Of a DNA stretch of 50,565 nucleotides, positions 13,324 through 16,140 are shown one piece after another. Source of the DNA: Methanobacteriota archaeon (GTDB taxonomy: Archaea; Thermoplasmatota; Poseidoniia; Poseidoniales; Poseidoniaceae); the NCBI GenBank assembly GCA_018650165.1, contig JABIGM010000012.1:1-50565 (forward strand), in the 5' to 3' direction. The notes below the pieces were generated by a model. It did no database searches. It was not told the DNA's origin and worked only from the letters and a program-made list of their open reading frames with translations. A program made the translations under genes and the position numbers. How positions within the stretch are numbered: the stretch's first letter is position 1; the number at the start of each line of letters is the position of its first letter.

Positions 13324-16140
13324 ATGGCGGAATATATTCCACAATCAACTGAAGAGTCCTGGCAAAAAGCATGGGATGCTGCAAATATATTCCATGCAGA
13401 ATTCAATGATGATAACCCGACATTTTACTGTCTAGAAATGTATCCTTACCCATCTGGAAAGATGCATATGGGCCATGTAAGAAATTACTCTATCGGTGAT
13501 GCAGTTGCCCGATATAAGCGCTTGATGGGTTTTGATGTGCTGTATCCAATGGGTTTCGATTCGTTCGGAATGCCTGCTGAAAATGCAGCTATCGCAGAAG
13601 GTGGCCACCCCCACGATATTACAGAGAGGAATATGGCATCCATTACAGACCAAATTAAAAGAATGGGATTTTCTTATGATTGGCGGAGATTACTAAAGAG
13701 TCATGATCCGCAATATTATCGCTGGAATCAGTGGTTTTTCCTAAAATTCCTTGAGAACGGTTTGGCATATCAGGAATTCGCCCCGGTAAATTGGTGTAAT
13801 TCTTGTAATACGGTCCTAGCAAATGAACAAGTCAAAGCGGGTCGTTGTTGGAGATGCAATGGACCTGTGATTCAGAAAGAGATGAGTCAGTGGTTCCTCA
13901 ACATCACAAAATATGCCCAAGAATTGTTAGATGGTTTAGACACGATTGATTTTCCGGAAAATGTCAAAGCGCTACAACAGGATTGGATTGGACGTTCAGA
14001 AGGAGCTGAAATCGAATTCTCAGTTGAGGGTCGAGATGATAAAATCAGTGTCTTCACCACCCGCCCGGACACCCTATTTGGTGTTACATTCGTGACACTT
14101 GCTCCAGAGCATGAATTGGCGCAGCGCCTAGTTGAAGGGACTGATTATGAAAAAGATTGGAAAACCTTGCATGATGAAATCGTCATAATGAGTGAATTTG
14201 ATAGAATCAAAAATATGGGGAAAAAGAAAGGAGTCCCTACTGGCTCCTTTGCCATACATCCTCTAACTGGTGAGCATGTACCCATATGGATTGGAAATTT
14301 CGTAATTGCATCCTATGGAACTGGCGCTGTAATGGCAGTACCTGGTCATGATGAACGTGATTTCGAGTTTGCAAATAAATACGAGATCCCAATTAAACGG
14401 GTTCTTGTAATGACTGAAAATGCAAGTGCTGATAGTGCCTTAGAGGCAGCAGAGTGTGACCTTGGCTGGATGGTTAATTCGGGAATTGAAGGTTTTGATG
14501 GCCTATACGGTTCTGATGCAAAGTCTGCTGTTTGTGACGCATTAGAGAAAAAAGGATTGGGCCAGGGTACTGTGAATTGGAAAATCAGACCTTGGTTGAT
14601 CAGTCGACAGAGGTATTGGGGCACTCCGATTCCAATTATTCATTGTGAATCATGTGGTGTAGTTCCGGTTCCAGAAGAGCAATTACCAGTTGAATTACCA
14701 CGTGATGTTGTATTCGATGGCAAGGGGAATCCACTGGAGTCTAGCGCTACTTTCTGTAACGTAGATTGTCCATCGTGTGGAAAACCTGCTAGGCGAGAAA
14801 CGGATACTATGGATACATTTGTGGACTCTTCTTGGTATTTCTTACGATATACAGATTCTATGCAAAATGAAATGTGTTTCAATCCGGAAATTGCAAACCA
14901 TTGGATGAATGTTGATTTCTATTGTGGTGGCATTGAGCATGCCCAAATGCACCTGATATATGCAAGATTTTGGACCAAGGCTCTTCGTGATATTGGATTA
15001 CATAATATCGATGAACCGTTCAATGAACTATTGTGTCAAGGAATGGTAAACAAATCGGCGCCTTGGTGTGATTCTTGTGCAATTACGCTCAATGTATCTC
15101 ATTCTGGCAATAGTTGCCCACATTGTGATTCTGAGTTGAGTGAAAGAAGTGCTAAAATGAGTAAGAGTCTAGGAAATACTGTTTCTCCAGAAGAAATGAT
15201 TGAGAAATATGGTGCAGATACCGTGAGATTATTCATTCTCTTTGCAGCAAATCCAACAGCAGGAATGGATTGGTCCGATTCTGCTTTAGAAGCTAACTAT
15301 CGGCAAATGGTTCAATTGTTCAGTATGCCTGAAAATATTCTAGCATGGGACGGTGATGCGAGTGGCATTGATTTGTGGATGAAAGCGCGCCTTAAACAGC
15401 GATGTATACAATGGCAAGAAGCAATGGACAATTATGATTTACGCGGCGCTGTAGACGCCAGTCATTTTGATTTAATCAAAGATATCAACTGGTACCGTAG
15501 ACGCGGTGGTGCAAATTCTTCCTTGGGTAGAGAAGTGCTGGAAGTTTGGACACATATGATTTCAATTGCAACCCCTCATATTGCAGAAGATTGGTGGCGC
15601 TTGCTTGGACACAGCGACTTAGTAGCAGGTAGGGTCTTCGACACACCTGGGCCCTTGGATTCTGATGAATTGGCCGCCCTTGATTCTGAAGCATACTTGC
15701 GTTCATTCCTTGAGCAAGCACGAAAGGTTGCAAAAGTGGCATCCAAGCACCTTGGAGGGGAGCCGAATTCTGCCGTTATCCATATTTCGAGACCGTGGAA
15801 AAGAGAGTTAGCACAGTCCGCTATTGCTCATTTAGAATCGGGTGAAAACATCAAGATATTTGCTAAAGTTTTAGCTGATTTACCATTTGCACAAGGTGAT
15901 ATGCGTGGAGAAGTTATGGGGTTCTGGGGTAAGAGAATGTTGCCTCAGATTTTCAAATGGTCGGATGAAGAAAAGCAAATCATTGCTAGTTCACTCGACG
16001 AGGGGAACGTCCTCAGAGTCGCTTCCGATTTCATCTGTAGCGACTTGGGGCTCACTGGAATCGACATCGAGTCCGGTGTCATCGACGTCGGCAGAAGTAA
16101 CACTGCCATCCCCTTGGCTCCCTCCATCGTCTACAGTTGA
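13324..16140 (+). CDS. leuS: Leucine--tRNA ligase (bacterial-type core, archaeal-type C-terminal domains)
   Basis: HIGH-equivalent [15 protein letters not shown], CP1 editing motifs TTRPDT and [31 protein letters not shown], C-terminus [11 protein letters not shown]. Confidence 0.97.
   Translation: [938 protein letters not shown]

Follow-up and report, generated by a model that had tools for sequence, protein, structure and literature searches.

A mosaic leucyl-tRNA synthetase with a bacterial-type body and an archaeal-type C-terminal part in a Marine Group II archaeon

NmLeuRS1 and NmLeuRS2 of Natrialba magadii were described as the first natural chimeric leucyl-tRNA synthetases (LeuRS): their N region is reported to be bacterial as far as Pro756, so that the alpha-helix bundle falls within it, and their C-terminal domain (CTD) is archaeal; they use an archaeal mode of tRNA-Leu recognition, in a CTD-dependent manner (Fang et al. 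2014, NAR 42:5109, PMC4005665). According to Andam et al. (2012, PMC3436685), haloarchaeal 'LeuRS-B' branches basally to Bacteria, and the part past their breakpoint at position 628 still groups with bacteria. The concept of a chimeric LeuRS is not new, having already been published for haloarchaea (PMC4005665); in the literature searched, we found no paper linking LeuRS with Marine Group II (MGII) or Poseidoniales. Here we describe a leuS gene of an MGII archaeon of the family Poseidoniaceae, carried on contig JABIGM010000012.1 of assembly GCA_018650165.1 (positions 1 to 50,565 of the forward strand; this whole stretch of 50,565 nucleotides is called the window below). Its product is a natural mosaic of two types, bacterial in type up to about residue 666 and archaeal in type over residues 682-938.

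Two domain types in one reading frame

The gene is an uninterrupted open reading frame (ORF) of 938 codons at 13324-16140 on the plus strand, without an internal stop. An earlier note, made from the sequence alone, had described a bacterial catalytic/editing core that gives way to archaeal-type sequence from about 15360. The analysis confirms a mosaic at these coordinates, and its two-type character lies far beyond chance. The motifs quoted in the earlier note are all present, in the order in which it gave them. Those located in the protein are HMGH (48-51), the ZN1 module NWC..C...C..C (156-178), TTRPDT (245-250), SRQRYWG (427-433), KMSKS (611-615), GADTVRLF (630-637), IDLWM (682-686, nt 15367), WYRRR (723-727), TPHIAEDWW (750-758), EAYLRSF (789-795), PWKREL (824-829) and an 11-residue motif at the C-terminal end (928-938). 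The parts of the gene, all on the plus strand, are as follows.

13324..16140 (+): leuS, mosaic leucyl-tRNA synthetase, 938 aa; the coordinates take in the stop codon, and no other LeuRS gene was found in this genome
13324..15321 (+): bacterial-type part, residues 1-666, from windowed hidden Markov model (HMM) scores, identity and PDB matches
13981..14544 (+): CP1 editing domain, residues 220-407 (Pfam PF13603, E 8.9e-62)
15067..15126 (+): zinc-ribbon-like insert CxxC-X12-CxxC, residues 582-601, with four cysteines (C582, C585, C598, C601)
15154..15168 (+): KMSKS catalytic loop motif, residues 611-615, from motif search
15322..15366 (+): junction loop, residues 667-681, a variable linker of 15 residues, from HMM windows, identity scan and alignment
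15367..15648 (+): archaeal-type alpha-helix bundle, residues 682 to about 775, from HMM windows, motifs and tree
15649..16137 (+): archaeal-type CTD, residues about 776 to 938, ending in an A.PL.P.I motif, from HMM alignment and AlphaFold2 (AF2) model

The bacterial-type part comprises a Rossmann fold with HMGH, ZN1, CP1, ZN2 (441-485) and KMSKS, together with the first helix past GADTVRLF. Against the NCBIfam model leuS_bact (TIGR00396) the protein scores 892 bits, above the curated cut-off of 548.4 bits, with residues 7-765 aligned to model positions 4-762 of 843. In the PDB the N part is matched best by the LeuRS of T. thermophilus and of E. coli (E about 1e-200), and residues 1-666 are 43-72% identical to bacterial and other chimeric LeuRS, in contrast to 7-40% for the archaeal type. 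CP1 is inserted between ZN1 and SRQRYWG, which is the bacterial insertion point; it carries TTRPDT and a 15-residue motif at 332-346, and isolated bacterial CP1 structures match residues 225-416 in the PDB search. The catalytic HIGH and KMSKS motifs, ZN1, ZN2 and the CP1 editing motifs are all intact, and Pfam recognizes a catalytic domain of class I, LeuRS editing domain PF13603 and, at 683-806, a helix bundle of the anticodon-binding type. The zinc-ribbon-like insert, a third module of this sort and of the Cys4 type, sits between QGMV and KMSKS, where many bacterial LeuRS have the leucine-specific domain.

The rear of the protein is of another type. The archaeal models TIGR00395 (leuS_arch) and NF008957 score far below their cut-offs (273 bits versus 648.5 for TIGR00395), and CP1 is not in the archaeal position; the sole long stretch of these models covers residues 609-937 and reaches the model end. 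The helix bundle contains the motifs ID.W, LR.A..S.F.L, WY.RR and TPH.AE and lacks the bacterial one-residue gap. When residues 660-938 were searched alone against the PDB, the only match was P. horikoshii LeuRS (its residues 721-964, E 5.5e-13), and bacterial LeuRS gave no match at E<=1; in the reverse direction, the E. coli helix bundle and CTD used as queries found no match among MGII representatives. The bacterial bundle and small bacterial CTD are absent from the MGII enzyme, there being no leuS_bact signal in windows past residue 640. The proposal of an archaeal C-terminal half thus holds for the last 260 residues, which match archaeal and not bacterial LeuRS.

An AF2 model of residues 600-938 was built from a 28-row alignment (mean predicted local distance difference test score, pLDDT, 87). 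Its best matches, along the entire model, are archaeal/eukaryal: it superposes over about 345 columns on human cytosolic LRS (6lr6, template modelling score, TM, 0.77) and on P. horikoshii LeuRS in complex with tRNA (1wz2, TM 0.74). In contrast, bacterial LeuRS structures align with the model over only 172-226 columns of its 339 residues, at a TM of about 0.4. On the strength of the superposition on 6lr6 and 1wz2, the predicted fold confirms that the CTD, strongly diverged as it is, belongs to the archaeal/eukaryal kind.

Position of the junction

To map the junction, 81-residue windows were scored against curated NCBIfam models. Scores are given below in bits, as bacterial model/best archaeal model.

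MGII (P0001), residues 520-600, 83/none; 560-640, 64/24; 600-680, 65/43
MGII (P0001), residues 640-720, none/26; 670-730, none/34; 680-760, none/55; 720-800, none/33
E. coli control, equivalent windows: 83/none, 67/20, 64/35
Bacterial P0128 control: 55/12, 59/28, 57/32
Archaeal LeuRS control from Marine Group III (MGIII): none/26, none/55, 13/56
Haladaptatus chimera: 16/16, 18/24, 16/45
Woesearchaeota chimera P0123: 20/19, 29/41, 30/63
Chimera L018 of family f35: 21/16, 30/33, 20/44

The controls behaved as expected, with bacterial scores far above archaeal ones for E. coli and P0128 and the MGIII enzyme scoring as archaeal. In the MGII protein, archaeal scores of 41-43 bits are already present in window 600-680, against 65 for the bacterial model, and past residue 640 the pattern is like that of a genuine archaeal LeuRS. 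In the Haladaptatus, P0123 and L018 enzymes, in contrast, the greater part of the bundle scores ambiguously, and a purely archaeal signal is confined to the last third of the bundle and the CTD.

An identity scan placed the crossover at residues 650-680. Over residues 601-660 the MGII protein is 56% identical to the f35 enzymes, 47% to those of DPANN archaea and 43% to those of bacteria, versus 29% to the archaeal type; over residues 661-720 the corresponding values are 14%, 16% and 8%, versus 22%. The last bacterial-like element is a helix of 13 residues (654-666), and the first archaeal-like element after the switch is IDLWM at 682. In the alignment, MGII has ID.W, LR.A..S.F.L and WY.RR in common with archaeal enzymes, whereas an FNTAIA-like motif and the one-residue gap are common to bacteria and all other chimeras. 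By these sequence measures the affinity switches from bacterial to archaeal within the loop at 667-681 (nt 15322-15366), close to the coordinate first suggested. The same note had put the recombination near GADTVRLF; the mosaic is real, and the breakpoint lies 30-45 residues past that motif.

A tree of residues 678-772 in the helix bundle, with 49 rows of which 16 are bacteria, gave the same division, with a 99/99 split between archaeal-type plus MGII sequences on one side and bacteria plus the haloarchaeal, DPANN and f35 chimeras on the other. Taken together, profile, motif and tree place the MGII junction, as read from sequence, about 100 residues upstream of that in the other chimeras.

Ancestry, distribution and rival explanations

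Separate phylogenies of the two halves show different affinities, and the halves do not fall into one clade. In the N-part trees MGII is sister to f35 (SH-like approximate likelihood ratio test, SH-aLRT, 97), and after addition of P0132 the group of MGII, f35 and P0132 has a support of 86. This sisterhood is independently supported by the common CxxC-X12-CxxC insert, which occurs in 29/29 MGII and f35 loci, in 3 of the 115 library representatives (two MGII and P0132) and in no archaeal-type LeuRS. The group of MGII and f35 sits with the DPANN chimeras, while the haloarchaeal pair lies elsewhere among bacteria; named near neighbours of the N part are scattered, being Thermovibrio and an Actinomycetota metagenome-assembled genome (MAG), and give no pointer to a donor. 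The horizontally acquired bacterial half that had been proposed is indeed of bacterial type, but its closest relatives in the trees are other archaeal chimeras (f35, DPANN) and not named bacteria. Given these relatives, the probable immediate donor of the bacterial-type part is an archaeon whose own LeuRS was already chimeric.

For the C part (residues 678-938; 39 rows, careful run), MGII forms a 100/100 clade on a long stem, sister to the Thermoplasmatota families f38 and f4 (90/78) and then f26 (90/96), and the DPANN and f35 chimeras form a separate clade (100/99). In a CTD-only tree the CTDs of the other chimeras, haloarchaeal ones included, form one clade (90/83) with MGII outside it. Approximately unbiased (AU) tests on residues 678-938 did not reject a grouping of MGII with MGIII (p 0.295). 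In a further AU test, a placement of MGII outside all archaeal types gave p 0.47. A native origin of the archaeal part, as first proposed, is compatible with the data, but the tests do not single it out. Archaeal-type LeuRS C parts of Thermoplasmatota at large (L056-L085) are not one group: f29 and f36 go with Thermococci; f4, f38 and f26 form their own clade beside MGII; most other families group with MGIII; and f7, f12, f11 and f30 are placed elsewhere or left unresolved in the tree. This scatter hints at further leuS transfers within archaea.

The distribution of the gene was surveyed in 301 Thermoplasmatota genomes. Both Poseidoniales families carry the bacterial-type gene in every genome (42/42 and 21/21), whereas the sister family f3 has it in 0/8; outside Poseidoniales, it was found only in four genomes of f35. 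The survey of MGII genomes that the earlier note had called for thus finds the mosaic throughout both families. A full archaeal-type LeuRS, in contrast, occurs in none of 75 Poseidoniales, in 38/43 f3 genomes, in both f49 genomes and in nearly every other Thermoplasmatota family, and the sister order MGIII keeps a fully archaeal enzyme. Because all sampled Poseidoniales have the mosaic and MGIII the archaeal type, gene content indicates that the mosaic took the place of the archaeal LeuRS along the MGII stem, once MGIII had split off. Close homologues align over their full length at 68-89% identity, and the named ones are labelled Poseidoniales or Poseidoniaceae archaeon. Whole-genome searches of the source genome, a 1.75-Mb draft, found no second LeuRS, the other matches being IleRS-, ValRS- and MetRS-sized ORFs; no archaeal-type LeuRS gene was found in the f35 genomes, where the chimera is the sole LeuRS, and a tblastn search of plasmids with archaeal-type LeuRS gave no match.

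From intact motifs and single-copy status we infer, with good confidence, that the MGII protein is the working and only leucyl-tRNA synthetase of its host. The source genome has four tRNA-Leu genes (GAG, CAA, UAA, UAG), each with A73 and a long variable arm.

tRNA-Leu genes, source genome: C3:6121-6205, C20:19450-19531, C59:24105-24190, C60:9869-9952

All four have a 13-nt variable region ending in TTC, and the variable-loop bases differ between isoacceptors. In P. horikoshii LeuRS, the bundle and CTD hold the tRNA body and read the long variable arm of archaeal tRNA-Leu. By analogy with that complex and with the NmLeuRS1 experiments, the bacterial-type body of the MGII enzyme (residues 1 to about 666) would activate leucine, transfer it to tRNA and carry out post-transfer editing in CP1, while the archaeal bundle and CTD would dock the tRNA and read the variable arm. 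Recognition of tRNA-Leu is predicted to follow the archaeal mode.

The sisterhood of the MGII and f35 N parts, together with the unique zinc ribbon that they have in common, suggests that a second recombination took place in the MGII leuS. In the most likely history, a leuS that was already chimeric, of the f35/DPANN kind, would have reached the MGII stem once MGIII had branched off and recombined, in the loop at 667-681, with a leuS of archaeal type, perhaps that of the host itself; the fully archaeal gene would then have been lost from MGII. The reading that the MGII LeuRS is a second-generation mosaic, formed when a chimera of the f35/DPANN kind underwent another recombination at a loop inside the helix bundle, with the resident archaeal leuS as partner, is a tentative reconstruction whose chances fall a little short of even.

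Several observations weigh against the picture drawn above. The CTD is so diverged that 81-residue windows of it alone (776-938) match no family, and in the CTD-only tree MGII is an isolated long branch whose placement is not settled. The best tree does not make MGIII the sister of the MGII C part, which groups with f38, f4 and f26, and the AU test on residues 678-938 does not reject a grouping of MGII with the DPANN and f35 chimeras (p 0.095). Forcing MGII and f35 together in the helix-bundle tree costs 17 log-likelihood units, with an AU p of 0.075 on 95 columns. The N-part trees (627 columns) were quick and are unrooted. The leuS neighbourhood (18 ORFs) has no synteny beyond leuS itself with four MGIII/f49 leuS regions of 13-20 kb.

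A rival reading gives MGII the very chimera of haloarchaea, DPANN and f35, whose single junction lies where the CTD begins, with a bundle that came to look archaeal through divergence or convergence on archaeal tRNA. The sister relationship of the MGII and f35 N parts fits such a history, neither of the two AU tests just cited rejects it, and the MGII C-terminal sequences are fast-evolving, with stem branches of 1.1-1.5. However, the MGII bundle scores 55 bits with the archaeal model and nothing with leuS_bact, whereas the other chimeras retain bacterial signal; it has the archaeal motifs and indel state; and the 99/99 split sets it apart. Convergence to such a degree across about 95 residues is improbable, and we consider the single-junction history unlikely.

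Slightly less probable again is a history with no recombination in MGII, in which enzymes that are bacterial-like in front and archaeal-like at the rear form an ancient lineage close to the root of the bacterial LeuRS; bacteria would later have swapped the rear end, and its archaeal holders would be relics or recipients. The basal position of haloarchaeal LeuRS-B reported by Andam et al. (2012, PMC3436685) is in keeping with it, as are the clustering of the DPANN, f35 and MGII N parts outside any named bacterial phylum in the unrooted trees and the scatter of the named near neighbours. But MGII and f35 have sister N parts with bundles of opposite type, which requires at least one recombination wherever the root is placed, and the full archaeal type in MGIII and nearly all other Thermoplasmatota families implies that the MGII gene was replaced. 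Finally, although the source genome is a 66-contig draft that is 80% complete, an assembly or binning artefact fusing bacterial and archaeal contigs has a negligible probability and is ruled out by recurrence, since the reading frame is continuous and the same full-length architecture is found in 63/63 other Poseidoniales genomes, single-contig ones among them, and in more than 100 independent protein clusters (ENA, JGI, NCBI, Logan, Tara) that cover 100% of the length at 68-89% identity.

In the window, leuS is preceded on its 5′ side by genes for a 1150-residue WD40 beta-propeller protein (6479-9931) and an 839-residue protein (10735-13254), in which the sole recognizable part is a pair of C-terminal winged-helix domains (HVO_0163-like, ArsR/MarR-like, of the DNA-binding type). 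At the other end, the last 150 nt of leuS (15991-16140) overlap the 3′ end of a convergent ORF on the minus strand (15991-18723), which encodes 910 residues with thrombospondin type 3 repeats. This is either a genuine tail-to-tail overlap or an over-called end of the minus-strand ORF.

Significance and comparison with known enzymes

In aminoacyl-tRNA synthetases the set of domains seldom changes, since an enzyme has to go on matching its tRNA. Poseidoniales are among the most abundant archaeal groups of the surface ocean. The present results widen the range of chimeric LeuRS beyond haloarchaea, to DPANN, a second Thermoplasmatota family and all sampled Poseidoniales, and they add a different splice point, since in the MGII enzyme the whole module that would bind the tRNA body, bundle plus CTD, is archaeal. 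The three architectures amount to a natural swap experiment that marks the boundaries of the LeuRS tRNA-recognition module. They also provide a clean case in which to study how an essential gene recombines internally, and a lineage marker that tells MGII from MGIII. If the second-generation origin is correct, the enzymes form a three-step series, from full archaeal through CTD-swapped to bundle-plus-CTD-swapped, that would show which modules must match the tRNA, and an essential translation enzyme would have been rebuilt twice through domain-level recombination. Current understanding is not overturned; the results are of use for studies of synthetase evolution and tRNA recognition.

Scoring of the 150 best 50%-identity representatives with an archaeal-CTD profile picked out about a dozen bacterial-type LeuRS. 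Among them are DPANN representatives from Woesearchaeota, Pacearchaeota, Nanohaloarchaeota and Nanoarchaeota (P0123, P0137, P0126 and P0139) and a haloarchaeal one (P0166) that is 71% identical to the Haladaptatus leuS. The f35 enzymes (L015-L018) also end in an archaeal A.P..PAI motif. Like MGII, the f35 and DPANN chimeras combine a bacterial-type N part with an archaeal CTD, and f35 is closest, with its sister N part, its zinc-ribbon insert and its status as sole LeuRS of the genome; both differ from MGII in that their helix bundle is of the bacterial type.

Comparison with the two canonical forms divides the protein at the same point. Like archaeal/eukaryal LeuRS-A (1WZ2, 6LR6, TIGR00395), the MGII enzyme has at residues 682-938 a bundle and CTD that agree by profile, motif and predicted fold, but its catalytic/editing body and CP1 insertion point are of the other type. 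Like bacterial LeuRS-B (2V0C, 4AQ7), it has at residues 1-666 the same domain order, 45-50% identity and intact catalytic/editing motifs, but neither the small bacterial CTD nor the bacterial bundle is present, and a zinc ribbon replaces the leucine-specific domain.

The closest described counterparts are haloarchaeal NmLeuRS1 and NmLeuRS2, which likewise place a bacterial-type catalytic and CP1 core on an archaeal CTD in an archaeon with archaeal tRNA-Leu. The haloarchaeal chimera either replaces or coexists with the archaeal enzyme, whereas the MGII LeuRS is single copy. In the MGII protein the bundle is archaeal, while that of Haladaptatus goes with bacteria; an extra zinc ribbon precedes KMSKS; the protein is not halophile-adapted; and in the N trees the MGII and haloarchaeal N parts do not fall together. 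By analogy, the MGII LeuRS would work like the haloarchaeal chimera, but with an archaeal helix bundle in place of the bacterial one that defines it.

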